Part shown: piece by piece, positions 4,565 through 26,105 of the stretch
Layout: each line of letters starts with the position of its first letter
Numbering within the stretch: position 1 is the first letter of the stretch
Notes under the pieces: model-generated
What the model saw: only the letters and a program-made list of their open reading frames with translations
The model's database searches: none
What the model was told of the DNA's origin: nothing
Position numbers and translations under genes: made by a program
From: Raillietiella orientalis
Lineage: Eukaryota
Reading direction: 5' to 3'
NCBI GenBank assembly: GCA_036172245.1
Contig: JAYWIR010000005.1
Location: 806,001-870,000 of the forward strand
Length of the DNA stretch: 64,000 nucleotides

Positions 4565-4725
4565 ATGGCGCTGGTCGCAACGGCCGCAGCGATCCTCCTG
4601 GCGTGCCTGCGGGCGCCCGGCGGCGCCTTCAACCTGGACGAGCGCAGCGCCCTCGTACACCGCGGCCCCGAGGGCTCCATGTTCGGGTTTGCCGTGTCCC
4701 AGCACACTGACCAAGGAAAGAGCTG
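4565..4725 (+). CDS. if: Integrin alpha exon 1: signal peptide and start of propeller
   Basis: gacc[57 protein letters not shown](W); donor TG|gtgagt. Confidence 0.93.
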
Positions 4726-7700
4726 GTGAGTCTCTCCCCCTTTCTCTTTCGCGCTCCCGGTCCGCCTCCCTCACCTCCCTCCGGGGGTGCCCCGTCCCCC
4801 TTCCTTCGAGTGCGCTTCGTCCTGCCGGCCCAGGAGCGGGAAGGGTCAACGAAGCTTCCGGGAAGCGTCTTTGCCTTCCTGTCCCCGGCCCGTAAGACCG
4901 GAGGAGTCCCGAAGGTGCGCGCGCAGACGCCGTCCCTCGACCTCGAGAGGGCTGCAGTTCTCCGGGGTGTCCTCCTGCGCGCACCACGGGCGGAGGGGGT
5001 CCCGTTTGCGGCCTGCCTCAGATGTCCTCGGGGTGGGCGGGAGGTTCAGCAGCCCCGCGTTCCTCCCAGGAGCTGGGAAGTCGGCGCGCACAGCTGTGCA
5101 CAGCTCTTTGTGGCTCCTGGGGCTGAGCAAGGGCCGAGCCAGCGGTCGCCTTCGTCTTCAGTGGGAGTCGACGGCCCGGTCCGCGCGCGCAGGCGCCTGG
5201 AGCTTACGCGGCGACCTTCCTTCCGTTCAAAATGGTCCATCGCAAAACCCGTGCAAGGCAGTCGAGCCTCCTCCCCTCCCCCGCCATATGCGCCGCTCCT
5301 TCCCGTGGCGCGGAAGTGGACCGCCGTGCGCAGCGCACGCGGAAGCCTCTGCTGCCTGCCTGCTTCGCTCCCTCCCGGGGGTCTCAAAGCCCCGCGTGGA
5401 CTCTCTGCGGACTTGCTCCCCCCCTCACCCACCCACACTCGCTCGCTCGCGCGCGTGCTGCAAGTGCTTAGCCCCACGTTTGCTTTCCTTGGAGGGAAAG
5501 GGAAGGTCAAAAGGAAGGAACGAAGGCAAGGAAGAAGAGGAAGAAAGAAGGAATTTTCCTGCGGCGCTGGAACCGCGGAAGCGTGCCGCATCCCTTCTGA
5601 GGAATCGTCCGTCCTCCGTCCGATGCACATTTGCGGCAGAGGGTCGGCACCGGGCAGCTTCGGTTCTTGCTGAAGGCGTCTAACCGAGCCGGGAAAACAT
5701 TTTTCGCATTCGGCACTTTTCGCATTCGTGCCAGGGGGGGCAGTTTGCCTGTCAGGACAGCGGGCAACGTGATGGTACGCGTGCCATCGGATGACACGCG
5801 CGGTTGCATACGCGGTCGGAGTTGGCGCACTGCCCTCACCGGTGTCGATTGCGTAAACAAATTGTAGTACACAGCTTGCGGTACGGTGGGCTGTGTCGTT
5901 TCAGCAGCACCAAAAGTCGTAATCAGATGTCCAAACTGAAATGGTTTATGGAAGCTTTAACAACAATAATAAAAATACAACTGTACAACAGAGTAAGTAT
6001 GTACTCGAGTCAGCCTCGCAAGCTTGCAGAGCAGCAAACGGGGTCACTTGTTCCCAATCAACAAATTTCCTTTTTATGTAGCAGGTACAGCACTTGTCGC
6101 TATAATTCCCAGTGTGTGACTTTTTGTACGGGGTTCGCCATCAACGTACGGTAAGCGTGTGGCACCTGAGGTTTTCGCGCGCAATCAACCCCAGTCCACA
6201 AGAGTTACGGGTTTCGGATTTCCATGTTGGTTTGGGATCCCTGCTCTCCTTTGCTGGCACGTGTCGGAAGCTTTGCCTCCATTGTTGTCTCCATTGCGGT
6301 GCGCGACCCAGGGATGCCACGTTTTTTCGGATCAAGCCCCTGACTAATTGCGCTTCTTGTAGACTGTAAAGCGTGTATAATTTGTAAACGTGTCTTGGGG
6401 ATATGCCCCTCCCCCCCCCACTTCTCATTTGTAAGAATTTCTTCTCAAGCAAGGTTTTTAAGGCAGTGTAATGGTATGTAGGTTAATTCTGTCTAAGGGT
6501 TGAGGATTCGCTTAATCTTAAGTTATTATCTTTGGAAAGTTTCCGTTTTCTTTTTTTCCTGCAGTGTCAGCGCGAATGGTAGCATTCATCGAAATGATTC
6601 AAAAGATGTGCTTTCGCTCTGAGGGAAGTTTTCAAGGTATGTTGCCAATAAGTTTTTCGAATACCTTGAATTTGTCAGAATCAGCTGAAAGTATGGGTAT
6701 GAAATAAAGCACGAAGATTGGGTGTGTGTTTTCCCCTTCTTCCTCTCTCTCTTTCCCTGTTTGATTTTCCCAGAGGCTTAATTTATATCGAAATTTGAAA
6801 GAGAAAAAAAGGGGGGGGGAGGAAGAGAAGAAAGTAGCGGCTCACTGCAGGTCTTTGTACGGGACTGCCTGTGCCAAATCCGCATCACGAACCTTTCCTT
6901 TACGTGGCTCACGAAAAGAACACTCCAGTATCTTTTCTTCAACACGAAAGTTTATGATTTCGTTGGAATTCGTTTCCCTTGATCATCGAGGAAGTTTCCT
7001 TAACCGTCGTCATTATTGAAGATTTCGAAGATAATCCTTTCCTTTCATTTACTGTCCCGAAAAATACTCTCGGGCATCGGGAGCAGCTGCCTCACTTTAT
7101 TACGGAAAGGCACGAAGCACACGGAACGCCTCTCAGTGAGCGAGTTTTCTGGAAGTTTTCGCCGGATAGCTTTCCTTTCGCTCGGCTGCGCCCGTTTTCA
7201 CGGAATTCGGGGACTTCCCGCGCGCGCGCTCCTCTCCTTGGGAAACGGTCGCGTGAGGTGGCCGAAGGAGGGAGAAACTGCAGGGCAGGAGGGGAGGGGG
7301 GGGGTTCCACTTCCAGGGTTCGTGCCGTGCGCCCACTTGCTGTGCCATCTTCCTTCCGCTGCCCTGTGGAGCAACTGCGACGGACGGGTTGCCCGGAACC
7401 TTTCCTCAGATGCTGCTTCACTTTCTCGGAGCGCACTGATTAGACCTTCTGAGAATTTTTGTGCATACAATGGGACGTTTTTCCTCTTAATGGCCGCGCC
7501 TTTCCCTTCCGCCCATTTTACGAGTAGGGAGCTTAAGTTTCGCCTCAATTTGCATGCGGAGGTGCTTCGGGAAAGTCTGCCGCGCGCGCTCTGATTTTTT
7601 CCTCCCTATTGTTCTGCCAGTTGCGGGATAGAAAACAAAACGAAAGCAAACACAAATACAACAAAACAAAACCAGGGGGGGAGAAGGGGGGGGAGTTTTT

Positions 7701-10700
7701 TTTTGCTTCTTCTTCCTCGCTGTTGTTGTTTTCGCGTCTCTTCCTCGCTTTCTTGCAGTGCGTCCGGGTGGGGAGTTCTTGACCGCAGATCGCCGCGGCG
7801 GTTCGTCTTCGGGGAGGCTTTTTTTTCCCTTCTTTTATTCTCTGCCATAGGAGTGGAAAGCCTGGCGGAACGCTCACCTCGAAGACGATGACGCGCTTCC
7901 TGTGTTTCGCGACGCCGCCGCTTCGCGGAACCGCGGTCCGTCCGACGAGTTCGGAGAGCGCGCGCTGCGGCTGCTAATTGCCGCGAATGGACTGACGTGC
8001 AGGTGTGAATCGATACGCCGCCGCGGCGGAAGGTCCATTCTTTTCCGAGGTGGCGCCGGGGGCATCGGGAAACTTTTCCTTCTTTTTTCCCCTCCCCGGC
8101 CCGAGCACAGGATCGTCTCGGTCCGGGGCGGACGTTCCTGCGCGTGGTTTCGTTTCCTCCTCCTCCTCCGGCTGCTTCGGGAGGAGGGGTCGGCGCTCGG
8201 GCGAGGGAAAGCGGCTGCCACCCACTCGCGCGATGCAAACCCTCGGGCCCGTAACCTTCCTCTTCCCTCCCCCCCCCCCTCTCCCTCCCACCGCATTTGG
8301 CAGCACTCCACCCAGCAGCCTCCTTTCGGCGGCGGCCGGTTTTCGGGCTCCCAGCGCGGGCGGGCGCCGGGGAGCCCACGACCGGATGCCGACCGGTTCG
8401 CGTCCCTCCCCCGCGTGCGAGCGAGCGACTCGCCCGGAGTCGCACGGCAGGTCGACTGGCGGCGGCACGCGCTCTCTCTTGGCGCACGCGTTTCGTTGTC
8501 GGTCCCTCGGGCTGCGTCGCGCCCTCGAAAGAACACCGTGGTCCAGCTGGTGGTGGAAGAGAGAGGAAGTCAGCCAGGAAGACTGGCGCGGAATGCTGGG
8601 AGCGCTGCTCGCGACCCGGGTTCGCGCAGGTTTCCCAGAATTCCGCCGCTCGCCTCAGCGCTCGACTTTCGAGGAGGGGGGAGGGGTGTTGCAGGCGTTC
8701 GCCCCTGCTCCGCGAGTCGCTCCGGTGGCGACCTCTGTGCGGTCCTGCCGATCTGCCGGTCGTCGTCGCTAGGTGGAAGGAAGGACAGGTGGCGCTCGGC
8801 GAACGCCAGCGCGGACCGACCCGCTGCAGGGGCGAGGTCGCAGCCGCTCGTCCCCCCCCCCTCCTCCCCCCTCCCCTCGGCCGCCCGAAAGTCGAGTCGA
8901 GCCGGTGAGCCTTTCCCCGCCGAAAGAGTCTCCGGCGCCGTTCGCTCCTCCTCTTCTCCGTCTGCGCCGCGCCGCCGCCGCGGCTGTGCAGGCGCGCGCC
9001 CGTGCAGCTCGCGCACCCAGCAGCTCATCGCGCGGTGGAGACAGGAGAGGTCTCTGGGGCACCAGGGTGGTCCGAGGCCTTTATTTTTTCATCCTTCGGA
9101 GCTTTCACTCTGGAAGCGGGTGGGCGGGCGCTCCAGTTTGTTCCTCCCGATGTCCTCAAAAGGCACCCTGGGCGTGTTTCTTCTTTTCTTTCTTCTTCGT
9201 GCGTGTTTTTTTCCCCCCACTGCGCGGGTGCATTTCCGAGCCCGACCACCAGGATGCGCTCCAAGTCGCCGCGCCTCCGCCGCCTTCTATTTCGGGAGCG
9301 AATCGCAAGTTCGGAGGGAGGGAGGGCGTCCCAAAAGTGTGTGCCGATGACCCAGTTCGCTAAATAGGTCGAACCTGTTCACCCATTGGTTTGGGGAGAT
9401 CGGAGGGGGACCGGGGAGTAGGGATGCGCAGCTGTTCTGGAGGAGGCGGCCCGTCGGGCGGGATTAAGGGAAGGGGCTCGCGAGGGATTGCGTGCGACTC
9501 CGCAAGGGGAGAGTGCGCTTCCTCATGGGACGCCCGCCGTTCTTGCCCGCGGGGCCCGCCCTTGAGCGTGGCAGTCGGCGCCGCTGACGCCGGCCACCTT
9601 TCCGGAAGCCTCTCTCGAGGTTGTCTGGGCGGGGATGCGCGGAACGGGGCGAGGGCCCTGGCCCGATCGGCACTCGCCTTCTTCCGTCTTTCTTTCGGCG
9701 CGAGCAGGAAGCGGTTGCCTTGCCAACGTATGTCCTCTCGCGGCCTGAAGACGCGTGCGTGCGTTACGCGCGCCCTGCGCGTCTCTTGCGCTTCGCCTCC
9801 CACCTCCTCCTCCTGCCGCCCTCGCGACTGGCAGCCAGACCAAGGCTGCAGGCGCGTGCGCACCTTCGGCCGGGCACGCGGCGTGACGGTTGCTGGCGCG
9901 CGACACGCGGGGAGCTCCGCGCCATCTTCGCGCCCCCTTCTTCTCCTCCGTCAGGAACACTCCCGGGTGCACATCCTGCGAAGCGCACGCTCCCTCTGGA
10001 GGCGTCCAACGAAGGTCACAACCCTCCTCTGCCGCCCACGACTGCAGATGACCTTGCAGAAGAAGAGAGAAAGCGGAAGCAGCAGGCGACGCCGACGCCC
10101 GCCGCTTCTGGTCTCCGCAGCAACATGCGAGCAGGCACGCTATGTCCCACGCGGGAGGCCTCGCCCCCGGTTCTCCTATTCTCTCCACCATTCTTCTTCC
10201 GTTCCCCGTCCGTTCTCCCACCGTTCCTCGTGCGTTCCTCCTCCATTCGTCGTCCATTCTCTCATTTCCTGTGCGCTCCCGTGTGCCAGTTGCTTCCTCC
10301 TACTCTTCCCCTTTCGGTTTCCTCTCAGGCCTCTCCAGGAGGCGTTCCCGCAGGATCCGTCTGCGAGGGCCCGCAGACGCATGCGCAGCCGCGTCACCCG
10401 TCTGGCCTCTCGCTCCTCTGCCGCAGACGCGACGCCCTCCCTGCTGCATCTGGTCACAGAGTCGGCGGTGGCGGAGGATGAACATCTGCGCCTCTTCCCC
10501 CCTCCCGTCCCCTTTCCTCGCTCCCCGCCTCATCTTCCCTGCGTCCCGCGCGTACCTTATCTCTCGGTCGTCCGCGGCCCTATCGCCGGACCCCCTCGCG
10601 TCTCCCCCGATGGACCCCCACTGCTTCCTCGGATCTCCGGGAGTGCGGCGGGACTGGCTTCTCCTCCTCAGCGGCGGTCCTCCCTGACCTCCGCTGTAGG

Positions 10701-13700
10701 TTTCCGTTCGTCCTCCGCCTCAGGCAGTGCCCGCATGCTCCCCTTTCCCGGGAGAATTCGCGCGCGTTCGCGTGCCGCCTTTGTTCCTCCCGCGCGGAGC
10801 ATGCGGTCGCCGCTTCCGGCTCCTAGGCTGCCTGCGACGACGCTCTTCGTCCGCAAGGTCGCCCGCAGTTGCGGGCGGAAAAGGGGGAGGGTGTGCGAGC
10901 ATCTTCGTATACCTGACGTTGCCCGTGCCACCACCACTTCAGGGAGGGGGTGGTTGCGGCGGTTTGCGAGATTCGTTTTCCCGCCGCATGGTGCCTGCTG
11001 CCCCCCTCCGCCTACTCGCATCGTTTCCCGTCGCCCGCGGCGATTCCCAGCGCTTCGACCTTCCTCGCTGCCTACCCGCGCTCCTCCCGCACGAGGATAA
11101 TCTGGGATTTCCTGGCCCCGTGGGCGACTCTGCTGTCCCTCGCCCCCTCTCCCTCCTCCTCCTCCGCGTCCTCCCTCGCGCACATCCGCCGCCACGCGAC
11201 TGGCGGCCTTCATGGCGGCGGGCGGGAGGACGCCCCTCGCAGGAGCGCATGCAGCCACCGGACTGGGGCGGAAAATCTTTGCACGTCCACGGACTTCCTC
11301 GCCGTCTCGCTTGCAGGTCACAGGGGAACCTTTCGATCCTCAAGGCAGTTCGCTGCTCGCCCTCTCCTCCTCCCCATCCCACCCTTTTTCTACTTCTCCC
11401 CCACTACAGTTCATTCTTCTCCCATTCCTCTTCCTCCTCCACTACGCGTCTTCGTCCTCGTCTATTCCACCACCACTTCTTGTCCTTTGTCCCTTTTGTC
11501 TTTGTCCACCATTTGTCCTCTTCCTTCACCACTCTTCGTCCATTTTCCATTTCTCCATCCCTCTTCATCCATTCCTCCACTCTTCCTCCGCTATTCCGTT
11601 TCTTCACCCTTCTTCATCCATTCCTCCACTTCTCTTCGTCCATCGCTTTCCTGTTCCTCGACCACTCTTCGTCCATTCCTCGACCACCCTTCCTATGGTT
11701 CGCTCGTCGGCTCGGTTTGCAGTTGCCCCGTGGCCGTCTTCTTCATCCGCCACCTCCGGGTCGACAGAGCTGCGAGGCCCGCTGCGCCGCCTCCTCCCTC
11801 ACCTTCCCGAAGTCCATCGTATCCGTACGCTGGCGTAGGGGCGCGGTTGGTGTATGCAGGCCGCCGCCTTGGCGTTACCCCTCGAGCCGCGAAACATCCG
11901 AGGGGGGCCGCTGCCTCCCCCTTGGCTCTCGCTGGTCCGCGGCCTCGCCGCTGCTGACCCGGGGCGCGGTCGGCCGACTTGCCGCAGCGCTACGCCGGTG
12001 CCTTGGCGCGCCGCGGGCCGGGCCCGCTGCAGCAGCTTCTGCGGGGGCGGCTCCGCCCTCCGGACCGCCCCTCGGCGAGCGGCCTCGAGTTGCTGGCGGG
12101 AGGCGAAGAGCCGAGCGGCCGGGGGCCGCCCGCGCTCCTCCCCGGCCGGAAGCGGCGGCAGCGCAGCGGGTGGAGAGACGTGGGCGGACGGGTGCGCGTG
12201 GGTGTTCGCGTGGGGGATGCTCGACCTCTCGCCCCTGCTCGCGGCTGCCGCTTCTCCACCCCATCGCGAGGGGGTGCAGGGGAGCCTCGTCGCGCGACGC
12301 TGCCGCTGCGCGCGCGCTGAGGCGAAAGCCACCGGCCCGCGGGCGCGGCCATCTGGTGCCCAGATGGCCTCGCCAGCTTCTCCCCCCACTTCCTGCGGCC
12401 CCGCGAGAAGGAGCAGCCGTTACCTGGTTGTTTGCTTTCCCCCGGCGTCTCCTATTTTTAGTCCGAGGGTCGGCGTGAGACTGCACCCGTGGGGGCGGCC
12501 GATGCCGATTTTTCTTTTCTTCCCCTCCCCCCCCATCTTCGTTCGTTTGATCTGGGGGGGGGGATAGGTGGGGGACCATGCCAGTTCGCGCGGTTCTTCG
12601 GCGGGAGAGGCGAAATGGCGGCGTTCCTTTCGTTCGACTGCGTCTGCGCGCGCGGACCGGCTGCGAGGAGGCTGAGGCGGCAGCTCTGCCTCGCGGGGCG
12701 GTTGACGAGTTCCTCCCCCCCTCCCCCTCCTGCGCCTGCTCTTCCAGGATTCGTCCCCTCCCTCCCCTTCCGGCCCTGCGCTTCCCTTCTGGTCTCAAGG
12801 ACAGCGTCTTCCAGCGTTCCGTCTCCTGGTGACGGAAGGGAAAGCCGGAGGGGAGGGGGGACGCGACCCCTCGGGAGCGCGAAGGCGCGTGGGCCGCAGC
12901 AGCCCTCGCAGGACAGGCCAGCGACCAATCCAGAAGAGGGCATCGCGGTGGTGACGGCGAAGGAACCCCGGAGGGCGACCCGAAAGGGTGGGGAGCTGCC
13001 GAGGGGCGCCGCGCGTCTCCTACGCGTCATCACCTGAGCGGGCAGCTGCCGCCGGTGACGGCAGCGTCATCCCTCTGTCGTCCCCGTTCCCCCGGCGGCG
13101 CGGGAATTCAGCGAGAGCGCGACCGCCTGCGCCCCCTTCCGGAAGCGAAACGCCGTGCGTAGGCGGCCGGGTCGCCTTGGATGGCGCCGCTAGGGAAGGC
13201 GCGACCCGTGCGTCATCGAATGTGGCGTGGGCGTGGCAGCGGCAGCTTCTCGAGCGCCCACGTGCGGCGGCAGCGACGGCTGGGAAGCGAGGCGGTGATG
13301 CACCAGGACGCCCACGGCAGTGGAGGAGGAGGAGCAGACGGGGTGCTCCCCTACCCTCCCCGTCGGCTGCCGGCCCCGGGGACGCTCGACCGCGGTCTCG
13401 GAGACGCCCGACATGTCCGCTCGGTTTGCGCGCGCCGCCGCTTTCCCGCCGCGGAGCCACGCTCATCCTGCCACGTCTGCCGCTTCGCGGTCTCCGCGAG
13501 GAGCTGCCACGCGCAGATTCGGGATAGGCGAGAGGGGTGGGGTCGGGAGGTGTAGTGGTGTCGTGCCCCTCCGGTTCTACCCCTTTTCACTCCGGCCGGG
13601 ACCCCTCCTGCGCCTCCTTCACTCCCGTTGCCGCCGCCGCCTTCTCAGGCAGCCGGGAGGCTGCGGATCTTTTCTGGGACGCCCGCCTCTCCCTCCCCCT

Positions 13701-16700
13701 TCCTCCCCGGCCATGCCCCGAGTTTGACGGATGAGGGAGCTTCGAGAAGGAGCGCGCGGTCGTCCGCTCAGGAGCAGTCGGGCGCTCTCGCACGGGGGAG
13801 CACTGAGGCGGGGGGTGGAACGATGGGAGGATGGGAGGAATTCTCTCGCGGAGACGGGAACTCCGGTCTGCACTTTCAGGTTGCCATGGAAAGCGGGAAA
13901 AGTCGAGCGGAAGGGGGGGGGGTGAGGGGGCCTCACATGGGGGGGAGGAGTGGGACGAGCCTGGAGGCCTTGGTCCGAAGGGGGGGGGGACAGCAGCAGT
14001 CTCTTTCCGACCGCCGAAACGGATGGTTCTTCCCCGATCGGAAAGGACGCGCTCTCGCGATCCCAGCCGCCGTCTCCCTGGCAACGACCCCTCCCTCTTC
14101 GCCCCCCTTCCTCTCCAGGTTCCGAGGGAGGGAAAAAGAGGGCAAGCTGGGGCAGAGGGCGTCCCCTGCAGGAACGCCGCCAGCGCCTCCCACAAGCCGC
14201 TTCTGCGGCGCCATGCGCCTCCGCGACCCCTCTGAATGACCCGTCCCTTCTCTCTTCCAGGGTGCTGGTGGGCGCGCCAACCGCGCAAACCGACCAGCCG
14301 GGAGTGGATCGTGGCGGCTGCGTCTTCCGCTGCAGCACCGAAGCGTCCGACCTCTGCCAGCAGATCCCCTTCGACAGGACAGGTGGGTTGGCCTTGCTTG
14401 CGGGTCGCGAGGGGGAGGGGAAAGGCTGCAGCAATAAGAGCGGAGGAAGGGGGAATGAGGAGGAGGAGGAACAAGACACGGAAGAAAAGGAGGAAGGGGG
14501 AAGAAGAAGAGGATGAAGAAGAGAAAGAAGAGAAGGTCATCACCACCATCGTCCTCGTCTTCACCTCTGCCGAGCACCACCACCACAATCCTCACCAGCT
14601 CGACTCTCTCACCACGTCATCATCACTATCGTCGCTGTTGCCATGACCACCGTCCTCCTCCTCCTCGTTTTCATGCCTGTCCCACCACTCCTACGATCGT
14701 GGTCGCCGTTGCCACCCCCGACGTGGACTCGACGCCGGGGACGCACCCTGTGAAGGGTGAGGAAGGACTGCAGGGCGTGGGAAGGAGACGAAGGCGGGAA
14801 AAGCGAAGGTGGGGTGAGGTCAGCGGTCTCCTCCTGTCCTCTCCACGCGGCGGCGGCGACCCTCTTGGAACGCTCGTCCTCCCCGTAGGTGGGCGCTGCG
14901 TTTTTCTTCTTCTTCTGCTCCCCCCCTCCCTCGCCCCCTTCCTTTCCCGGAAGCGCCTCCTTCGTCCTCCGGGCGGGGGCGACCCTCTCCTTCGTCGCAC
15001 GTGGGCGCTGCGTGGGCTGGGCAGCTCTTCCGCCCATCCCTCCTCCATAGCCTCGCACTGGCCGCGCATCCCTGGGAATCGGAGGGGGGGAGAACCGGAT
15101 CTTCCGAAGCCCGAGGCGGACCCGCGCCTACCGGGAACCGACGTGGCACGCTCCAGCCTCCTTGGCAACCGCCCTCGGGAGGTGCCGCCCGCTCTTGCCT
15201 GTCTCCTTGGAAACAGCGCTCCCCGGATGTCGCCCGCGCTGCCTCCTCCCTCTTGCGCTCCCCCTCGCTGTGAGATGCCCGAGGGGATCGCACTGTCCTT
15301 TGCTCGGCAACCCGAGGTCGTCCCCTGGCACGTGTCCCCGGAGAGAGAGGTGCCACGGGACGCTTTCTCCCACTCCTCCCTGCCGTCCTCATCCGAAGGC
15401 TGCTGAGGAGGCGCCGCGCTGCCTGGAAGATGCCGTGGCCGTGGATACGCCTCCGCGACGCCTTCCGCGCGTCTCCATCTCTCGGGGTGCGCGAGCTAGA
15501 TGCAACCGAAGCTGGAAAAGATCCAATCCTCCCCCCTCCTCCCCCCCCTTCCGGGGCGGCTAAGAATAGCAGGGAGCTCCCCCGCCCGGAGGTGCGGGCA
15601 CTGGCGGCGGCGGAGTGCCGGCGTGTTCGCCCCCGTCTCCCCCGCGTGCGGGGGTGGCCCTTCCGGTCCGGATCCCCTCTTCCCACCGCCTGCCCTTTGC
15701 TTCCGTTGCGTGGTCCGGCGACCGCGGTCACCGGACAACTACCGACTGCTCCTCCTCCCTTTTCCGCGCACGCGGCGGCCTCTCATCCGCTTCGAGGCAC
15801 CACAGCGCCGACTCCGCCTCGCTGCCGGCGGGCTTCTCCTACACCTCACCTTTTCCAGGCAACCAAAACGTCTCCAACCAGCAGCTGCACCAGAAATCCG
15901 CGCAGTGGTTCGGCGCCACCCTGGTCAGCACGGGAGAGATGGGCGCAGTCGTGGTGAGTACGCCCGCGGGCGCGGGCGCGGCTCAAGATGGGAGGGGCGC
16001 AGCCCCAGAGGGCGCTCGGACCCTCCGGGAGAGATGGTCCCGCCGAGATCAGGAAGCGGGGTCATGACCTTCACCCTGCAGTGCCATCTCCGAACCCGCC
16101 TCGAGCGCTCCCGTTCCCTAGGGACGCCCGTTGGGAACCCCCATCCATGGTCTCCCCCCGGCATTCGTTGCCCCTTCAGCCGCCCCCGCGCTCGTCGTCC
16201 TTCGCCACGGACGGATAGTCCGCAGCGACGGGGTGCGCTCGCGTCGGAGGGGAGGGAAGGTCGCGCGACGGGCGGGCAGCGGCAGCGAGTCGCCTCCATC
16301 GCGGAACGCTGTGGATGGCCATTCCCTTGACGGGGACCGTGGGGCGGGCGCTCCTCCTGAGGGCACGGCGCGCACTCTCTTCCCGCCGCCCACGCGCCCC
16401 GCAGGCGGGCTCGGCCAGGGGGTAAAACTCCGCCGGCCGCTTTCGGCAGTAGACGGCGAGAGGAGGACGAAGGTCATTGAGGGGTCACCTCCCAAGGTGC
16501 CTGCCGGCTTCCGGCCGGGCACTCCGACGCCTCCGTCAGATCGCGCCGCGGAAAGGAGTCGCCCGGGGGCAGGGAGGGGCGTTGCTGGGGTAAAGAGGTA
16601 CAGGTCGGAAGGGCGGGGGACGCTGCTGCTCCGAAGGCAGGGGCCTGAGAACCCTCCACTGGCCGACGGGGCGGAGGGGCTGGGGAACCCTTCATATGTT

Positions 16701-18176
16701 CCCGGGTTCCGGGATCTCCCCTGTGGCACCGTCCGGAACACATCGCGCTCTTGCCGAACCCGCCGGAGGGTGAGGGTGGGGGGGCGTGACCCTTGGCGTC
16801 TCTGCAGGGCGCGGGTGCTCTCGGACCATGGAGCGCGCGGCGAGCTGACCCGAAGGGTCACCTTTGTGTCTCCGCAGGCTTGCGCCCCAAGGTACGTGTG
16901 GTACACGTCCACGGGCAAGAGGAGGGAGCCCGTGGGCACCTGCTTCGTGTCCAGCAGCACCTTCGACCAGTTCTCCGAGTTCTCCCCCTGCAGGACCTGT
17001 GAGTAACGCGCACGCGCGCGGCTGGGTATGAGTGCTCTGCCGCCGGGTGGCCGGGATGGGGAAAGGAGGGGGAAGGGAGAAGAGCCGGCTGCCCTGCGCC
17101 GTGTCCGGCGTCCCGAAGCGAGTGCCGGACCCCCCTCCCTTTTTTTTCCCCGGCTTTCCCAACTCCGCCCCCTTCCCTTCCTCCGGGAACATGCGCCCGG
17201 GATGCTGCCCCCGAATGCCGCAGCCGTTTCCTTGCCGATCGGGGGTTCCTCGTCGGGGAGTAGGGGCAAGGCTGTGGAGGAGGGAGAAAACCCATGTCCG
17301 GAGCGCCGTCGGGTCGCACGCGTCGTACAAGCCACGACGGCGGCAGCGACCTACGGAGAAAGGCGAGAGCGGCGCGCATGCTCTCGGGGGATGCGGCGTG
17401 GCGGCAGGCGACTGCGGGCCGCGGTCGAGCCTGCGCGAGGGGCTCGCTGATGGCCGCGCGGCAGCCTTGGCAACGCGGAGACGCTCGGAAGAACCTGTTC
17501 GGGCGCGAGAGAACCGAGCTGTGTTCTTCTCGACTCCCCCCCCCCTCCTGAGCTCGTTTCGTTCCCACGACGACTGAGACGGCGGCGGCGGCGCTCTATA
17601 TAAATAGCATGTGACGAAAGAGCCATTCGGAAGGAAGGCGACACCGCGCCTTTCCTGCGCATCCAGCGCACGTGGGAGTGTATAGGAGGGAGAAGGGGGG
17701 AGTTCGACGGCGCGTGCGGCTCCCCACCCAGCCCTGCCTGCCTCCTGGTGGGGATGCGCGTGGCCCGCGGGCCCCGGGGGCGTGACGGGCGGCGGAGCGG
17801 AACGAAGCGACCGGGCGCGCGAGAGAGCGGGCAGGTCGCCCGGCGGCTGCTCGGCGGGGCGTCGTCATCGTTGCACGCCTCTCCTCCCCTACCCGCACAG
17901 CGAACCCCGGGGGCCGTTCGCCGGTCACTTCGCCCCCGGAGGCGACCGGCAATCTCCGGGCGCGGAGGAGGCTGGGTGGAGGGAGAGGGGAGGTGCGACC
18001 GCTTCTTCGGCACCTCCGAAGACGTCGGGTGCTGCATGCTTGCTGTTGTGGTTCCCTGTTTTCCGTGTGCTCACTGATTTCTCTGTCTTCCCGAAATCTT
18101 TCCCCCAGGCTACTGTCGCGGTAAGTCCTCACAGATGCTTTTTTTTCCTTTTTGGTTGCCGCCGTAGTCGTAGCGG

Positions 18177-18207
<31 letters not shown>

Positions 18208-21200
18208 TACTGCCGGCTTTGCTTGTTGCACGGCTTTGTCCGAGGGAGGCCGCTGGCGCCGCTGCTTGCCGCGCCGCAGCGAGCGACGGGCACCACTCAC
18301 TGATGCATTTCTTGTCTCCTAGCGTCGTCATGGGGATACCACAGGCAAGGATCGTGTCAGGCGGGCTTCTCGGCGGCCATTAGCCCGGTTGGTGTGCCGC
18401 GCATAGCGGGGGGGTTCTGTTCGAGGGCGCGACCGCGCGCGCGCGCTCCGGTTGTTTGCCGGGAGCAGAGGGGCAGGCATTGCCCGACCCTTCCTTTCCC
18501 TGCTGCTCCCCCGCTCCTGTGACCTGTTCCCCGCGCGTCCCTCGCGCTTTCTTCGCGCAGCGATCGCGCCGCCCCGCGCGTTGACCTCCAGGTGACCTCC
18601 GTCTTTCTCGGTTGCCCCCCCCCAAGGACAAAGAGCTCCTCTTCGTGGGAGGAGCGGGAAGCTACTACTGGCAAGGTATGCGCTCCCGGGTTGTGTGCGG
18701 TCTCTGGAGTTAGTTTGCGTGTCCGCCAGGTCAAGTGTTCGTCAGGAGGCTGCTGCTGCGCTCCCCGACCCTCAGCACCAAGGAGGGACCTGCCCACGAT
18801 GACGATAGCTACCTGGGATACTCCATGGCCGTGGGGGAGTTCTCCGGGGACGGGGCGCGCGACCTGGTCGTCGGCATGCCCCGCGGCGCCAACCTCACCG
18901 GAAAGGTCGGTTCTTCCTGTCCTTCGCCCCTCCTCACCTTTCTGGGCAGATCGTGCTATACAATTCGAACCTGACCAACCTTTACAACATCACCGGGGAC
19001 CAGTTGGGTTCGTACTTCGGCTACTGCGTTGCCGTGGGCGACATCAACGGGGACGGCCTCGACGACATTCTCATCGGCGCGCCCATGCACGCCCACCCCA
19101 ACAACGAGAGGAAGTACGAAACGGGAAGAGTGTACGTCGTGTACCAGAACCGACGGGTGAGAGCGGGACGCGCCGCGATGCCCCGGGCTACCCACCATCC
19201 CTCCCAGCGCTCGCGAAGAGGCCGAGCTTGGCGGCGTCGTGACCCCCAGCGGACGGGGCGCCGTCACGCTCGGTCTCCCTGTTAACAGCCGTCTGACGCT
19301 AACCTGGACGCCCGTAACCAGACGGTATGCCTGCCCTGACACTTTGACCGAGGTCACCTCACTGATGCAGTGTTTTTTTTTTCTCTCTCTCTTTCTCTCC
19401 CGCCTGCTCCCCGACCGATCGCGCCCTCCGTCCCTCCCCCTTCTCTCTTTCTTTCTCTCCGCTCGCTCCCTCCCCGCCGACGCCGGCGCCCGGACGAGCA
19501 GCACCGCTTCCGGCATTGGAGCACCCTCGACGGGAAGAACTCCAAGTCCCGCTTCGGGATGGCCATCACGTCGCTGGGAGACATCAACAAGGACGGTTAC
19601 GGAGGTAAGGTTCCCTTCCCCCCCCCATTCCCCCTCCCCCCTCTTCCTCCCTCTCCTTCCTCATCGTCTTCCCTCTCTTCCTTCCTTTCTCCTCCTCCTC
19701 TTCCCTTCCTCTTCTTCCTCCCCCTCCTTCCTTCCTTTCCTACCTCTTCGTCTTCCCTTCCTTCCTTCCTTCCTTCCTCCTCCCTTCTTCCTCATCTCCC
19801 TCCCTCCCATCCTTCCTTTTCCCCTCTTCTTTCACCCCCTTTCGGAAGCAGCGACACACGCAAAAAAGAACAAGAGGGGAACACAGGTGGGTCCGGTGGA
19901 GACGACGCGTAGGACAGACGCGTGGAGAAGGGGGGGGGGAGGAGGGAGTGACGTAATGCCCCGGAGCGCAGCGGCGTCCGACCGTCCTCCCGCCCGCGCC
20001 GGGGAGGAGGTGCTGCTTCCGCGCGCGCTGTTCTCGCTGCGAACCCGGGGCGCTGCTGTCCTCTTCCTGCGGCTCCTCCTTCGCGTACGACGGCTGGAGG
20101 GAAGGAGGGAGACAGGTACACGGGAGGAAGCGAGGCGAGCGAGTCTGAATGTAGAGGTCGGAGAGCCAGGGCGACGCCGCTTTCCGGAGGGAACCTGAAG
20201 CGTGTGGACCAAAGACACCGGCATGACGAGGCCAGAAAGGCGCCTCCCTCGACCCTGGCAAGGCCAGGGATGGGGGGGGGGGGATCGGAAAAGACGCTTG
20301 CGCAGGGAGGGGGTGCGACGGTCGGCCACGGGGACTGCGGAGGATAAAGTGGCGTCTCCACGCGGGCCGCTAGCAACTCGCGGGGAGACGGGCGGGGGGC
20401 TGCGCTCGCGAGGTGGCGCTCGACGGAGTCTCCCCTGGAAGGATGCGCTCCTTTCCCTCCCCCCCGGCCACCCATGTCGAAGAGGTAGCGGAAGCCGCTG
20501 CACGGGGACTCTTCGCGGCGGGCGCATCCTGGAGGGACGGGGGCCTCCCGGTCCCAGGCGTTCTCTGGTCACCTCCTCCCCCTACGCACCCCCGCGAATC
20601 CTCCCTCCTCCCCCGCTCGGCTCTCCTTCGGACCCGACTTCTCCCTCTGTTCCTTCTCCCAGATTTCGCGGTGGGCGCTCCCTACGACGGTGGAGGCGGG
20701 GCCGTGTACGTGTTCCAAGGGTCCCCCAGCGGGGCAATGGAGGAGCCGTCGCAGGTGCTGTTGGCGAGGACCTTCGGCCCCAACCTGAGAACCTTCGGCT
20801 TTTCGCTGGCCGGCGGCGTTGACATGGACGCCAATGAGTACCCGGACCTCCTGGTGGGCGCGTACGCCTCCGACGCGGTCCTGTACCTCCGGTACGCCAC
20901 GTCGCCCCTTTTAGCGGGCGGCCAGCGGCAGCAGAACCCCCTTCCTCTTTGCAGAGGCCGTCCCGTGGTCGCCCTTCTTGGACACCTGGAGTTCGCGTCC
21001 ACGTCCAAGCAGCTGGACCTCTCCGAGAAGAACTGCGAGCTCCAGGACCGCACCGCGGTCTCCTGCGTGCGGCTGGACTACTGCTTCAACTACACCGGCG
21101 TGGGTGCCTCCCGCAGGATGGGTGAGCGAGCATTCCCCGCTCCTGCGAGACCGCCTTTCTTCCAGATTTTCGCGTCCACTACAAGCTGGACGCCAAGAAA

Positions 21201-24200
21201 GAGAAGAACCCACGGATGTTCTTCCTGAACCAGGAGGGTCAGAGCGTGCGCAACGCCACCGTCTCCCTGGACAAGGTCTCCTACTTCTGCAACAGCACCT
21301 TCGTGTACGTGAAGGTCAGTGGGTCGTTGCCCCCGAGGAGGCACCGCGCTGACCCGTCCTCGCCCCCCGGGGACTCCTGCAGCCGGGCGTGCGCGACAAG
21401 CTCACGCCCATAGTGGCCGAGGTCCACTACAGCATCGACGACGCATACGACGGGCACCTGCAGGGGCAGCGGCAGCTCACGCCCGTCCTGGACCTGTCGC
21501 GGCCTCCGGTGCACAGCGACACCATTCATATCCAGAAGAACTGCGGAAGCGACAACCTATGCATCCCAGACTTGCAGCTCCTCGTCCGGTCGAACCTGGA
21601 CGCGTATCTGCTGGGCTCGCTCGACAGGATGGAGTTTGACGTGCTTATCCGGAACGAGGGGGAGGACTCGTTCGAGTCGACCTTCTACATGTCCATCCCG
21701 GAGGGTGTCAAGTTCATCAACGTCAACAGGACGGAGGTCTCCAAGGAGGCGATCCTCTCCTGCTCCGCGCCGGTGCCTCGCCGCCACGTCCTCAAGTGCG
21801 ACGTGGGCAACCCGCTGCCGGCCTACGGGCACACCGCCTTCAAGGTGTACCTGCGCCCTCAGCAGGGCGTCGAGGCGCGCCACAAGGCCTTCCGCTTCGA
21901 GATGGAGGCCAACAGCACCAACCAGGAGCTCGATGCCAGCAAGGCGGACAACGTGCGCCTCTTCGACATCCCCATCCGGGTGGAGACGGATTGGAAGGTC
22001 ACCGGGTGAGCGCGCGCTGTCGGCCGTGATTTTCTGGTGGCTCTGCCCTTTCCCCAGGGAGGGGAGGGGGACCGGACGGTGGCTTCCGCGCTGGCCCATC
22101 CCCTTCCTCCTCCTCACCATGACGCGCCACCACCTGCTCTTCCCGGGTAGCGGCGCCGAAGACCGTAGCGGCGGCCAGCGTTCCAATGCCGCCGCAACGC
22201 GGGTGCGCTGCGGGGAAGCGGCGGCCGGAGAGGAAGATGTGCGTTTCCAAGGACGACGAGACGGATCTTGCGCGCGCGCCCTGCGCCCCGCCGCTGCATT
22301 CTCTGCTTGCGCCTCCTCCTCCTCCCCCCCTTATTTCCCTGGAGGAAAGGGGGAGCCAAGCTCCCTCTTCCTTTCGGGGAAAGGAAATCCTGATAGACCT
22401 CCTCCCTCCCCGTTCCCCTTCTGAGTTTGCTTGCATGACCGCAGGGCTTCCCGGCCGGACTCCATCAACTACAACCTCTCGGACTACCGCATGACAGACC
22501 ACACACGAGAGGGTCACGTGGGTCCGGAGGTGGTGCACCTGTACAGCGTGAGGAACCTGGGACCGTCGGATATCGTGCAGGCGGAGGTGTTCATCCTGTG
22601 GCCCACGCGGACCCTGAACGGTAGCCAGCAACGCGCCTCTGTCGGCCGTCTTCGCAACAACCGCCCCCTTCTGTTGCAGGCGAGCCCCTGCTGTACCTCC
22701 TCGAGCAGCCTGTGGTCCAGGGAGCGGGAGAGTGCGAGACCGTGAAGGACGTCAACTACCTCCGGCTGCAGGTGAGCGTCCACGCTCTCCTAGGGTGCCA
22801 AGGGGGTGGTGGGCAAGGGATAAGCGGGCAAGGGACGTCGCGTCTCGCGGCGCCACCTTCCGATGAGCGCGGAAGCGCCCCCTTCTCTCCTGCAGCTCGA
22901 CCACAAGAGGCTGCCTGTCTTCAGCGCGTTTACCGAGGTGGAAGCGGCAGCGGCAGGGGCATCGGACGAGACCCAGAGCGTCCATCTGAACAGCTGGGGC
23001 GAAGGCTCCCGCGGGCACCTCTCCACAGGGGGGAGAACCCACGGTAGGCGACGGAGGCCGCGTTTTCCCCACTCGTTCCTTTCTGTCCGCTCTCCCCTCT
23101 GCTGTAGAAACGCGTGTCATAGGGGACCACGAGGAATCCTGGAACGTGCGCCGGGAGGAGGTGGCAGAGAAGGAGGAGGAAAGCGCGAGTCAGCACCACC
23201 GCCGCGTCGGTGGAGGCACCAGGGTAGCGCACAGACAAGATGGAGGCGCTTCCTCCCTCCAGAAGCAGCACCATCACCACCACTACCATCAACAGCAGCA
23301 GACTATCCTGCGCGAGAAGAAGCCTCTGGCGGCTCCCAGGCCTGCAGCTCCGTCCCAGCCACAGCTGCCGCCGCCATCCTCATCGATGACGTCGCAGGTT
23401 GCTCGCGAGGAGTGGCAGAACTCCGGCGTCGTCTGGCAGCCGGAGCACGGCGCCACGGAAACCGAGGAGGCGACGAAAGGAGATAGCGCGCTTCAGTTCC
23501 CGCTCGTTGGATCCGACCTCTCGCGGGGCGAATACGAGGGCTACGACAACGACGATTTCTACGACTACGACGACGAGAGGCAGTACGACGACTACGGCGA
23601 GGACCACGGCTTAGCTGCGGGGCAGGAGCTCCCGGCCTCGTCCAGTGGCGTGCGGGACGCGGCGGGTCTCCAAGGCCACGGAGCCGCCTCGGGAGAGACG
23701 CACAGCGGTTACGACGCGAGCCGCGGCACCGAGTCCTCGTCTTTCTCGTCCCGCGGGTCTGCCATCGGCCACCAGGAAGAGATCCTCCACTCGTCGTCTA
23801 CCGGGCTCCGAGAGGGTCAAGAGCATGTGTCCTCCGACAGCGTCCGTAACGCAGATCTCCAAGGCTACGGGAGTGGTCAAGGAAAGACCTACGGCTCCTA
23901 CGAAGGAGGCTTCGTCGAATCGTCGTCTTCCTTCACGTCCCACGGGTCTGCTGTCGATCAGGGGGAAGAGACCCGCGGATCCTCCACCGATCTCCGGAGC
24001 CAGGGACGTCAGTCTGTTCAGTCTGCTGGCGACGTCCGTGACGCAGATCTCCAAGGTCACGGGAGCGGTCAGGGAAAGACCCATGGCTCCTACAGAGGAG
24101 GCTTCGTCGAATCGTCGTCTTCCTTCACGTCCCACGGGTCTGCCGTCGATCAGGGGGAAGAGACCCGCGGATCGTCCACCGATCTCCGGAGCCAGGGACG

Positions 24201-26105
24201 TCAGTCTGTTCAGTCTGCTGGCGGCGTCCGTGACGCAGCTCTCCAAGGTCACGGGAGCGGTCAGGGAAAGACCCACGGCTCCTACGGAGGGAGCTTCGTC
24301 GAATCGTCGTCTTCCTTCGCGTCCCGCGGGTCTGCTGTCGACCAGCGGGAGGAGGCCCGCGGGTCGTCCACCGGTCTTCGTGGTCAGGTGGCTGCGGCCT
24401 CGTCCGGCGGCTCCTGGGACGCCGCGGGCCTCCGGGGCCACGGAGTTTCCTCGGGAGAGACGCGTGGCGGCCATGACAGGAGCCGCGGTTCCCAGTCGTC
24501 GTCATTCGCGTCCCGTGGATCTGCCATCGAGCATCGGGAGGAGGCGCGCGAGGAGGACGTCGCAGTGCGTCATTCCGCGGACGAGGGCCGCTCCGATCGA
24601 CAGCAGCCGTCGAGGAGCGCGTCCACCTACGGGAGCCTGTCGGCCTCTCGCCATCGGTCGGCCGGCCGCGAGGGCACGTCACAGCGAAAGGATTACTCCT
24701 GGAGCACCAGCACGGAGTCCACCGTGACCTCGAACTACAGCAGGGACGGCTTCCAATACTCGAGCAGCCACCGCGAGAGATCTTCCGCGAGCGTGTCGTC
24801 TTCCTCGTTCGGGCTGGATGGCGGCGATGAGCGGACTGATGTCGCCGGGGACGGAAACCGCCGCTGGACGGCAGCGAAGCAGCAGCCGCAGGGCGAAAGG
24901 GGCACCGCCGCCGTGCACTCCGGCAGCCAGTCGGCCGAGTCGGTAGCGGGCGACGGTGGTGAACTCCGACTGGGCGGTGAGCCAGACCACACGGAAGAGA
25001 TGAACCGCAGGCTGTATGGGAGCAACCAGTTCCGGTGGTCCGCCTTTGACCTGGGAGAGGGAGGTGCCGACCCGGATGGCGCCAACGCGGTCGACGTCGA
25101 CGGCGTTCCCGCGAAGGGTCGCCCCGATCAGTGGCAGGGCTTTCTGGAAGGCGCGTCCGCCCAAGTGGGCTCCAAGCGCCAGCAGCAGCAGCACCTCCTA
25201 CGAGGCTCGAGCGAAGCCGGCGGCCAGGAGCGCTCGTCCTCCGCAAGCGCTGCTGCAGGGGCAACTGGCCAGAGGAAGACCTACGATTTCCAGTCGTCGT
25301 CGTCTGAAGAGCGCAGGGAGGAGTTTCACGGCCACAAGACCCAGCGGCACCCGAATGCTGGAGACGTCGTCCAGGAAACCTGGCACTCGTCGTTCAAGTC
25401 CGAGTTCTCCGGTCTCCACCCCACCAGGAAGAGGTACGAATTATCCCCCCCTCCCGATTACACGTCCTCCCATCCGTCTTCACTTCCTCTTTCTGCTCCC
25501 AGGCGAGGAACTGACGGGCAAGGTCGGCGCAGCTACGAAGACGAGCTTCAGTGCGGTTCCTCCGAGTGCACCTTCATCCGCTGCGTGGCAGGTCCCCTGG
25601 CGAAGGACCAGCACGTGCTCTTCGGCGTCCGGTCGCGGCTCTGGGCTCACACCATAAGCAAGGCAGGAGGAAGGGGGAGGGCTCGGCCGCGTGACCTTGG
25701 CCCTCCGTCCTCTCTCGCAGCTCGGCTTCCAGAAGGTGGCCATCGTCTCGAAGCTGGTGACCAAGGTGACCGAACTTCCCCACAGCGTGGATCCCGGGTA
25801 CCTCGACTACCAGGTGCAGGAAGTGCACACCATGGTCAACCCCGAGGAGGGCTACTACCAGCCCAAGCCCATCCCGTGGTGGGTGATTCTGCTGGGAATC
25901 CTCGGAGGGTTGCTGCTCCTCATGCTGATCGTGCTGGGCCTGTGGAAGGTGAGCGGGAGGATCCTCGCTCGAGGCTCTGCCCGACCTCACCCCTCCCCAC
26001 CAGTGCGGGTTCTTCAAGAGACAGCGACCGGACGGCGGCGCCGGCAACGACAGGGAGCCCCTCAACCGCAACGGCCACTGCCACCCGGAGGACCAGTCGT
26101 TGTGA
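4565..26105 (+). CDS. if: Integrin alpha subunit, alphaPS2/inflated-like (RGD-binding class); 20 coding exons, 1832 aa
   Basis: Exons 4565-4725, 14261-14382, 15859-15953, 16878-16998, 18323-18387, 18627-18675, 18730-18905, 18950-19156, 19502-19604, 20663-20891, 20955-21121, 21166-21314, 21383-22005, 22445-22620, 22680-22771, 22896-23043, 23108-25433, 25503-25662, 25721-25948, 26004-26105 sum to 5499 nt with consistent phases. Signal peptide followed by FNLD; FG-GAP repeats ([73 protein letters not shown]); [17 protein letters not shown] as in Drosophila alphaPS2; [14 protein letters not shown] genu; TM segment; KCGFFKR. Confidence 0.96.
11380..11695 (+). repeat. Pyrimidine-rich degenerate repeat (CTTCRTCCATT-like)
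   Basis: Recurrent cttcgtccatt / cttcatccattcctccact units; a similar patch lies at 10180-10265. Confidence 0.6.
14261..14382 (+). CDS. if: Integrin alpha exon 2
   Basis: ttccag|[42 protein letters not shown]|gtgggt. Confidence 0.93.
15859..15953 (+). CDS. if: Integrin alpha exon 3
   Basis: ttccag| [31 protein letters not shown] |gtgagt. Confidence 0.93.
16878..16998 (+). CDS. if: Integrin alpha exon 4
   Basis: ccgcag| [41 protein letters not shown]|gtgagt. Confidence 0.94.
18109..18120 (+). CDS. if: Candidate 12-nt alternative microexon of the integrin (S replaced by CYCRA)
   Basis: Long pyrimidine tract then tcccccag|GCTACTGTCGCG|gtaagt; phase 1-1, frame-preserving, no stop. Confidence 0.65.
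18184..18207 (+). repeat. (TGC)8 microsatellite downstream of the microexon; candidate Muscleblind (YGCY) cluster
   Basis: tgctgctgctgctgctgctgctgc, with further tgct/cgct motifs nearby. Confidence 0.8.
18323..19604 (+). CDS. if: Integrin alpha exons 5-9 (propeller blades 3-6)
   Basis: 18323-18387 [21 protein letters not shown]; 18627-18675 [17 protein letters not shown]; 18730-18905 ..[30 protein letters not shown]..; 18950-19156 ..[25 protein letters not shown]..; 19502-19604 [34 protein letters not shown] (tandem gagcag acceptor). Confidence 0.93.
19615..19842 (+). repeat. Nearly pure polypyrimidine (CCTT/CCT) tract in integrin intron 9
   Basis: About 220 nt with very few purines. Confidence 0.85.
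20663..23043 (+). CDS. if: Integrin alpha exons 10-16 (blade 7, thigh, calf-1, start of calf-2)
   Basis: [125 protein letters not shown]. All introns GT-AG. Confidence 0.94.
23108..25433 (+). CDS. if: Integrin alpha exon 17: 2326-nt exon encoding a low-complexity S/G/H/Q/E-rich insert in calf-2
   Basis: ctgtag|AA ACG.. in frame with ORF 23146-26109; open for 2.3 kb; ends RK-AG|gtacga; phases match the flanking exons. Confidence 0.85.
23650..24543 (+). repeat. Coding tandem repeat, five units of ~192 nt (64 aa)
   Basis: Units start at 23650, 23842, 24034, 24226, 24412. The inner three are near-identical ([63 protein letters not shown]); the outer two are diverged and resemble each other. Confidence 0.95.
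25503..26105 (+). CDS. if: Integrin alpha exons 18-20 (light chain, TM, cytoplasmic tail)
   Basis: 25503-25662 ..[30 protein letters not shown]; 25721-25948 ..[27 protein letters not shown]; 26004-26105 [33 protein letters not shown]. Confidence 0.93.

Follow-up and report, generated by a model that had tools for sequence, protein, structure and literature searches.

A large calf-2 cleavage loop in the integrin alphaPS2 orthologue of Raillietiella orientalis, and depletion of furin spacings inside long alphaPS2 loops

In vertebrate integrins, a disulfide across the calf-2 loop holds the heavy and light chains together, and an insert in the fly alphaPS2 chain is reportedly described in early Drosophila papers, including Bogaert 1987. 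The available portion of one study states that Drosophila PS2 acts at muscle attachments and is needed for strong attachment (PMC2132760). Here we analyze a gene of Raillietiella orientalis that is, as identified from its sequence, an integrin alphaPS2/inflated orthologue and that lies in a window of 64,000 nucleotides (nt), positions 806001 to 870000 of contig C5 (JAYWIR010000005.1) in a genome of 210 Mb. Its calf-2 domain is interrupted by an insert of 826 amino acids (aa), L850 to R1675, that ends in a furin consensus. A comparison with orthologues shows that a long loop at this place is the usual state in most winged insects and a shared, little-studied feature of alphaPS2, of which the window holds a large example, and not the filaggrin-like novelty that an earlier note on this sequence had seen in it; what is new here is a selective depletion of the furin spacing R-x-x-R inside long alphaPS2 loops.

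We found no study of the long alphaPS2 loop in the open-licence literature, whose range does not include the classic Drosophila papers. Spodoptera litura alpha2, a PS2-group chain of 1567 aa, is tabulated without comment in the accessible part of PMC10379305 (Table 1), the serine-rich stretch in the available section of PMC11861568 lies in betaPS, and the alphaPS2 loop is not mentioned in the accessible text of PMC11458790. The best solved-structure matches of the Artemia franciscana orthologue are the vertebrate RGD-class chains alphaV, alpha5, and alphaIIb; the alignment with alphaV covers query residues 9 to 879 and 1358 to 1497 and breaks exactly at the loop, where the gap in alphaV is ~32 residues (868 to 901), and none of these matched structures covers the long loop. 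Among insects, long loops are found in Cimex lectularius (P0087, 1931 aa; loop, 916 aa), Halyomorpha halys (P0228, 1903 aa; loop, 884 aa), Athalia rosae (P0289, 1827 aa; loop, 795 aa), Chrysoperla carnea (P0219; loop, 765 aa), and Gryllus longicercus (P0058; loop, 731 aa). All five resemble the window insert in their calf-2 position, lack of cysteine, S/G/R/E/H-rich composition (cosine, 0.90 to 0.97), and terminal furin site where one is listed, and those of Cimex, Athalia, and Gryllus are also internally repeated, but the insert shares no sequence similarity with any of them and the window lineage lies outside Neoptera. The Artemia franciscana chain (P0003, 1505 aa) also carries a Cys-free loop that ends in a furin site, although this loop has 483 aa and is rich in E/R/L/K rather than S/G. 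Drosophila suzukii (P0021, 1388 aa) has an S/Q/G-rich loop with an acidic tyrosine patch, an F-x4-FDLG motif, and a terminal furin site, whereas its 365-aa loop, the shortest of any named neopteran, is 2.3 times shorter than that of the window and has no strong internal repeat.

We sampled 300 related proteins, using as queries the calf-1 exon (targets up to 2000 aa) and the Artemia orthologue (up to 2634 aa), and measured the loop in 226 of them with profiles of the two calf-2 halves, the remaining 74 being without one anchor. The mis-anchored P0148 was excluded from all loop counts, which leaves 225 rows; P0126 (2300 aa) is unmeasured, and longer loops may exist. Hand labels cover 97 of the 225 rows, with duplicate isoforms, partial records, and some congeners left unlabelled. 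On this measure the window loop is 839 aa long. Loops of at least 400 aa were present in 104 of the 225 other proteins, loops of at least 700 aa in 11, and loops of more than 839 aa in 3; among the 97 named orthologues, 67 reached 400 aa, 6 reached 700 aa, and 2 exceeded the window. All 68 named Neoptera have loops of 365 to 916 aa in the same place, with little or no cysteine. Elsewhere the loops measure 124 to 140 aa in Palaeoptera (n = 4), 121 to 349 aa in Collembola, 115 to 484 aa in Malacostraca, 35 to 483 aa in Branchiopoda, 37 aa in a barnacle, 30 to 81 aa in Chelicerata (n = 11), and 59 aa in a millipede. The window loop is longer than those of all 17 named non-neopteran pancrustaceans (35 to 484 aa), but a non-insect pair, P0226 and P0235, has loops of 548 and 801 aa, so the window is not alone outside insects. 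The earlier note had set the insert against typical chains of ~1000 to 1150 aa and against Drosophila; its size stands but its rarity does not, long loops being general in insect alphaPS2, and the contrast with Drosophila looked dramatic because Drosophila suzukii has the shortest neopteran loop measured. That note had also held that same-sized inserts in related taxa would count against its view, and largely they do: such inserts are common in insects, but not in the 17 named non-neopteran pancrustaceans.

The window insert runs from the calf-2 cysteine to the furin site, is Cys-free and hydrophilic, and has well over the 300 aa that we took as the lower limit of the long-loop class. Neopteran loops match its composition with a cosine of 0.85 to 0.98, cysteine is absent from 109 of the 116 other loops of at least 300 aa, and histidine ranges from 0.9 to 7.8% among long loops (window, 5.0%). 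Strong internal repeats are sporadic, occurring in 11 of the 116, and the window loop has the highest internal-repeat score of all 117 (83.5; next, 64.5). In sequence the loops differ to the extent that 52 of them fall into 12 unalignable groups; only this grouping leaves out P0091 (1651 aa), an alphaPS2 chain whose 832-aa loop holds 21 cysteines in several repeated, apparently folded units and is the only Cys-rich loop among the 116. Runs rich in E/R/K/Q occur in 21 of 23 Hymenoptera, 3 of 4 members of the beetle group, and the single thrips, and in no Lepidoptera. As a side observation, such runs in ant, bee, beetle, and thrips loops (P0225, P0289, P0017, P0085, and P0210) resemble single alpha-helix segments, and Artemia P0003 has similar runs below the threshold; a rigid extracellular helix within an integrin loop would be unusual.

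Filaggrin and hornerin are S/G/H/Q/R-rich, and full-length human filaggrin has ~4000 aa. The window insert has a composition of 16.3% S, 13.8% G, 8.8% A, 8.5% R, 8.2% E, 7.0% Q, 5.9% D, and 5.0% H, with only 2% lysine, 6% aromatic residues, a near-neutral charge, and no RGD, and contains HGSG twice, SSSS five times, RGS eight times, and QEE once. The proposed convergence on filaggrin and hornerin did not survive comparison: the likeness is compositional only, the composition is ordinary for alphaPS2 loops, and convergence is unneeded because the insert matches neopteran loops in composition. The insert lacks an S100 domain, is 38% occupied by its five short units, and has an extracellular, tethered position, in contrast to the filaggrin family, which the available part of PMC8659386 describes as an N-terminal S100 domain followed by a disordered repeat domain, of 10 to 12 repeats in FLG, in intracellular granules. 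Membership in the S100 fused-type family was rejected, as the window protein starts with a signal peptide and an integrin propeller. Sequence similarity to filaggrin repeats was not found either: the insert matched no Pfam family at E values up to 0.1, no Atlas cluster, and none of 8000 scored candidates at E values up to 0.001, the last being weak evidence from a size range (1356 to 3870 aa) that falls short of full-length human filaggrin. BLAST comparison with insect loops gave no similarity beyond the first 13 residues. A mucin-type proline-threonine-serine (PTS) domain was likewise rejected, with Ser plus Thr at 21% and Pro at 2.4% of the insert against PTS thresholds of ~40% and ~5%.

RKRR (residues 1672 to 1675) is the only R-x-K/R-R in the whole window protein, and cleavage there is predicted. 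This consensus lies within the last 60 residues in 103 of the 116 long loops, whereas only 2 of the 116 carry one farther upstream, where composition predicts 51 and local shuffling 73; averaged within 14 groups, the upstream count is 0.09 against 9.5 expected. No such depletion is seen for plain dibasic sites or for an acidic control. R-X-X-R is a further furin target according to the available part of PMC9296861, which gives K/R-Xn-K/R (n = 0, 2, 4, or 6) as the general convertase pattern; RRxR and RxxR, both minimal furin sites, are unsuitable as controls, and a spacing test was used instead. Across the 10 groups without E/R helix runs, arginines three apart (R-x-x-R) numbered 3.2 versus 20.0 expected and arginines five apart 11.1 versus 21.1, whereas arginine pairs at spacings of 1, 2, 4, 6, and 7 and E, H, K, or D pairs three apart were near expectation. 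The depletion is specific to convertase spacing. Because R-x-x-R is depleted inside long loops, it seems that selection against internal furin cuts keeps the loop whole on the heavy chain. The disordered tail that the earlier note expected there after cleavage is consistent with both the terminal furin site and the depleted internal spacings, and disorder is predicted, FoldIndex being below 0 over 92% of the insert versus 22% of the rest of the ectodomain.

We see an even chance that the enlarged calf-2 cleavage loop is translated, cut once, and retained as a disordered tail that serves as a steric spacer beside the membrane. Full-length messages would all translate the 826-residue loop, and furin would cut once, after R1675, leaving a light chain of 18 kDa (161 aa) and, joined to it by a presumed disulfide across the loop, a heavy chain of ~180 kDa (aa 22 to 1675) on which the loop would stay as the predicted tail. 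This 88-kDa coil, with a radius of ~8 nm by a formula estimate, would be tethered at the base of the leg and would crowd the integrin legs, which may tune extension, clustering, or matrix spacing at muscle attachments; a bent integrin receptor is of the same order of size as a coil of that radius. Because neopteran loops stay long although their sequences, and even their chemistry, differ, we favour a physical role as spacer or crowder, and the 12 unalignable groups are as expected where size and solubility matter and sequence does not. Among the functions that the earlier note had listed for the tail, the spacer is preferred, and condensate or cross-linking roles gained no direct support.

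Much of this variability would also suit a loop that is functionless and merely permissive, tolerating nearly all hydrophilic sequence and growing by slippage and tandem duplication while selection removes only those cysteines, hydrophobic patches, and stray protease sites that interfere with folding or processing. Lengths of 35 to 916 aa across pancrustaceans, a window insert without alignable homologue, fairly relaxed ratios of nonsynonymous to synonymous substitution between repeats (dN/dS; given below), the sporadic internal repeats, and compositions that vary as between Hymenoptera and Lepidoptera are all consistent with such a loop. We nevertheless regard it as somewhat unlikely: none of the 68 named neopterans falls below 365 aa, though deletion should be easy; internal furin sites are nearly absent, though cuts would merely trim a useless loop; and a short motif is kept in Diptera, beetle-like, and caddisfly loops.

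That motif is one of two recurrent patterns. Clusters of acidic residues and tyrosine occur in 48 of the 117 long loops, the window included, versus 6.1 after global shuffling, with a distribution by group of 15/16 Diptera, 0/8 Lepidoptera, and 1/11 Hemiptera. Of 116 loops, 43 have F-x4-[VILFA]-[DN]-[LVI] among their final 260 residues, versus 5 when shuffled, and its narrower form, F-x4-[LVA]-D-[LV], stands near the loop end in Diptera, beetles, a lacewing, a caddisfly, and moths. In leave-group-out tests, 6 of the 9 rows from Diptera, the beetle-like group, and the caddisfly gave p up to 0.013 for this DL-type motif, which was not found in most Hemiptera, Polyneoptera, and Hymenoptera loops. 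The best match in the window is at the matching position, with p = 0.22 in the less biased test and ~0.006 with a pattern chosen post hoc. De novo motifs outscored shuffles by no more than a modest margin, and two further candidates noted by eye were rejected, a "hairpin" motif (G-K-P-V-x-x-W; window p = 0.17) and a "DNV" motif (window p = 0.05), each of which failed most leave-group-out tests. These patterns would be expected of a tail that binds matrix or neighbouring integrins, through sulfated acidic tyrosines or an F-x4-LDL motif, or that associates with itself and is cross-linked in the manner of filaggrin, and the histidine (5%) and aromatic (6%) content and near-neutral charge of the insert are compatible with such a tail. 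We consider it quite unlikely, given the patchiness of both motifs, the window match at p = 0.22, the wide range of histidine among long loops, and an insert without RGD or cysteine and with only 2% lysine; filaggrin condensates, moreover, form inside cells and require an S100 domain together with numerous long repeats (available part of PMC8659386).

The ~825 Cys-free residues that the earlier note placed between calf-2 and RKRR, mostly on one exon of 2326 nt, were recovered as 826 aa with no cysteine, and the tandem repeats it described are real: Tandem Repeats Finder (TRF) reports a 192-bp unit in 2.8 copies with 92% matches, at the core of an array of five units. The main insert exon is single-copy in the genome, and an assembly artefact is an unlikely source of the repeats, as the units differ by at least 8% in DNA. 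None of 2000 base shuffles and none of 3000 first-order Markov simulations left the insert frame open, but stop-free frames as long as 592 codons exist in introns of this GC-rich gene, and the length of the open reading frame (ORF) is therefore in itself weak evidence. All 10 pairs of repeat units have dN/dS of 0.30 to 0.63, the outer units being less surely aligned. Codon usage, scored with a training set that extended three codons beyond the stop, gave -0.06 bits/codon in frame, compared with -0.24 and -0.35 for the two alternative frames and a span of -0.71 to -0.19 over 20 intron windows. Judged by these coding signals, the whole insert is likely translated and constitutively included in mRNA. 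It is highly improbable that an internal acceptor or donor takes out most of the 2326-nt exon, leaving a main isoform with a short loop. Such splicing could draw on in-frame AGs near the exon end, at 25399 and 25405, and the long stop-free intron frames and two intron-like blocks in the repeat array would accord with it; however, a transcript that skipped exon 22896-23043, exon 23108-25433, or the two together would be out of frame, the two internal acceptors (joined to exon 22680-22771) have weaker pyrimidine tracts (11 to 12 of 17) than the acceptor at 23108 (14 of 17), dN/dS is below 1 in every repeat pair, and annotated as well as assembled insect orthologues have loops of like size.

With the loop removed, and in trees built without a PS1 or PS3 outgroup, the window protein groups with pancrustacean alphaPS2 (99% support in the Shimodaira-Hasegawa-like approximate likelihood ratio test, SH-aLRT) and belongs to none of the clades formed by insects, Malacostraca, Branchiopoda, and Collembola; the nearest named protein is that of Artemia, with 52 to 54% identity outside the loop. 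A position inside Neoptera is rejected by the approximately unbiased (AU) test (p-AU 4.7e-7; 18 rows, quick tree). The length of the window loop is probably an expansion independent of Neoptera, because the loop is short in mayflies, in damselflies, and in the majority of crustaceans, and this lineage would have reached it separately, about one-third of the loop having arisen by tandem duplication. We advance a wider generalization only tentatively, as possible rather than probable: pancrustacean alphaPS2 may bear a glycocalyx-like, furin-protected disordered tail of 400 to 900 residues, independently enlarged in Neoptera, brine shrimp, woodlouse, and this lineage, that sets integrin conformation or spacing at muscle attachments, the window holding the largest and most repetitive example found outside Neoptera.

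Several observations weigh against a retained, independently expanded spacer. Loops of 30 to 140 aa suffice in spiders, ticks, mayflies, damselflies, a barnacle, and decapods, and a long tail is therefore not required for alphaPS2 function. The AU test does not reject a position of the window protein as sister to insects (p 0.24), and because of this an independent expansion rests on the short loops of Palaeoptera and Collembola. The recurrent short motifs hint at specific binding, and 2 of 9 blocks of 100 codons, both in the repeat array, have codon scores (-0.43 and -0.18) that overlap or border on those of introns. A terminal R-x-K/R-R is missing from 13 of the 116 long loops, and the window insert itself holds 1 R-x-x-R versus 5.1 expected, a small count. 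Helix periodicity in E/R-rich loops also depletes spacings 3 and 4, and the depletion statistics ignore kinship, the groups being related and uncorrected for phylogeny. Finally, what R-x-x-R depletion reveals is that cuts within the loop are disfavoured; it does not give the reason.

The window gene alone adds little, as insect databases already contain alphaPS2 chains with equally long loops. The family-level constraint is the part worth following: a much-studied receptor has an unstudied feature, a disordered chain on the membrane-proximal leg, which can be as much as half as large as the alpha subunit, has expanded on several occasions, and is nearly free of internal furin sites.

Table 1. 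Features of the alphaPS2/inflated orthologue (positions in the window)
Feature	Position	Strand	Basis
alphaPS2/inflated orthologue: signal peptide, FG-GAP propeller, thigh, calf-1, calf-2, transmembrane helix, GFFKR tail	4565..26105	+	Exon model, Pfam, best named matches, trees
N-terminal portion of calf-2 to just past Cys837 (exons 22445-22620 and 22680-22771)	22445..22771	+	PF20806 model positions 7-61 on first exon; translation
First insert exon (148 nt; aa 850-898), frame-shifting if skipped	22896..23043	+	Translation
Main insert exon, 2326 nt, aa 899-1674, Cys-free, S/G-rich; skipping shifts frame	23108..25433	+	Translation
Acidic tyrosine cluster, aa 1039-1064, candidate tyrosine-sulfation patch	23527..23604	+	Cluster count versus shuffles
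Five tandem units of 60-64 aa, aa 1080-1393; core 192-bp x 2.8 array at 23841-24377	23650..24591	+	TRF and protein-level comparison; unit identity 36-92%
Site resembling the F-x4-[LVA]-D-[LV] motif of holometabolan loop ends, aa 1537-1550, homology unproven	25021..25062	+	Motif tests, p = 0.22; ~0.006 with post hoc pattern
Furin consensus RKRR, aa 1672-1675, split by a 69-nt intron (25434-25502)	25426..25506	+	Translation; consensus as given in PMC9296861
Calf-2 C-terminal part, predicted light chain (Cys1691, 1696, 1701)	25503..25662	+	PF20806 model positions 134-177
Exons 25721-25948 and 26004-26105, with the last part of calf-2, the transmembrane helix, and the cytoplasmic tail	25721..26105	+	Translation

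Splice-site inspection and translation gave a plus-strand gene model of 21 coding exons from the ATG at 4565 to the TGA at 26103-26105 (Table 1), with a chain of 1836 aa, or of 1832 aa, the length given in the earlier note, without a 12-nt microexon. The protein matches the Pfam families FG-GAP (PF01839) and Integrin_A_Ig_1/2/3 (PF08441, PF20805, and PF20806), its named database matches are integrin alpha-PS2/inflated, thigh and calf-1 are encoded on exon 21383-22005 according to Pfam, two calf-2 halves flank the insert, and the cytoplasmic tail has KCGFFKR. The microexon (18109-18120, plus strand) keeps the frame, has strong splice sites, and adds two cysteines in a propeller loop; the addition is absent from all 144 other proteins in which that segment is readable, and Artemia P0003 has 10 extra residues there. 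The 69-nt intron that splits the furin consensus (plus strand) is in frame and stop-free; a message that kept it would encode 23 more residues and lose the R-x-K/R-R consensus. Intron 25663-25720 (plus strand) is GC-AG, since no donor but a GC keeps the frame where the calf-2 exon ends. Intron 1 contains plus-strand stop-free frames of 592 codons (10700-12478) and 578 codons (9364-11100) in C/T-rich, low-complexity DNA, which are probably compositional. Downstream of the gene, a hydrophobic ORF of 312 codons (28744-29679, plus strand) has a GT donor at its end and no Pfam match at E 0.01; it resembles the long first exon of a gustatory-receptor-type gene. A second integrin alpha gene in the same genome (contig C11, L002:1498-3009), which we take from its sequence features to be alphaPS1-like, has a cleavage loop of ~105 aa that contains RERRRR.

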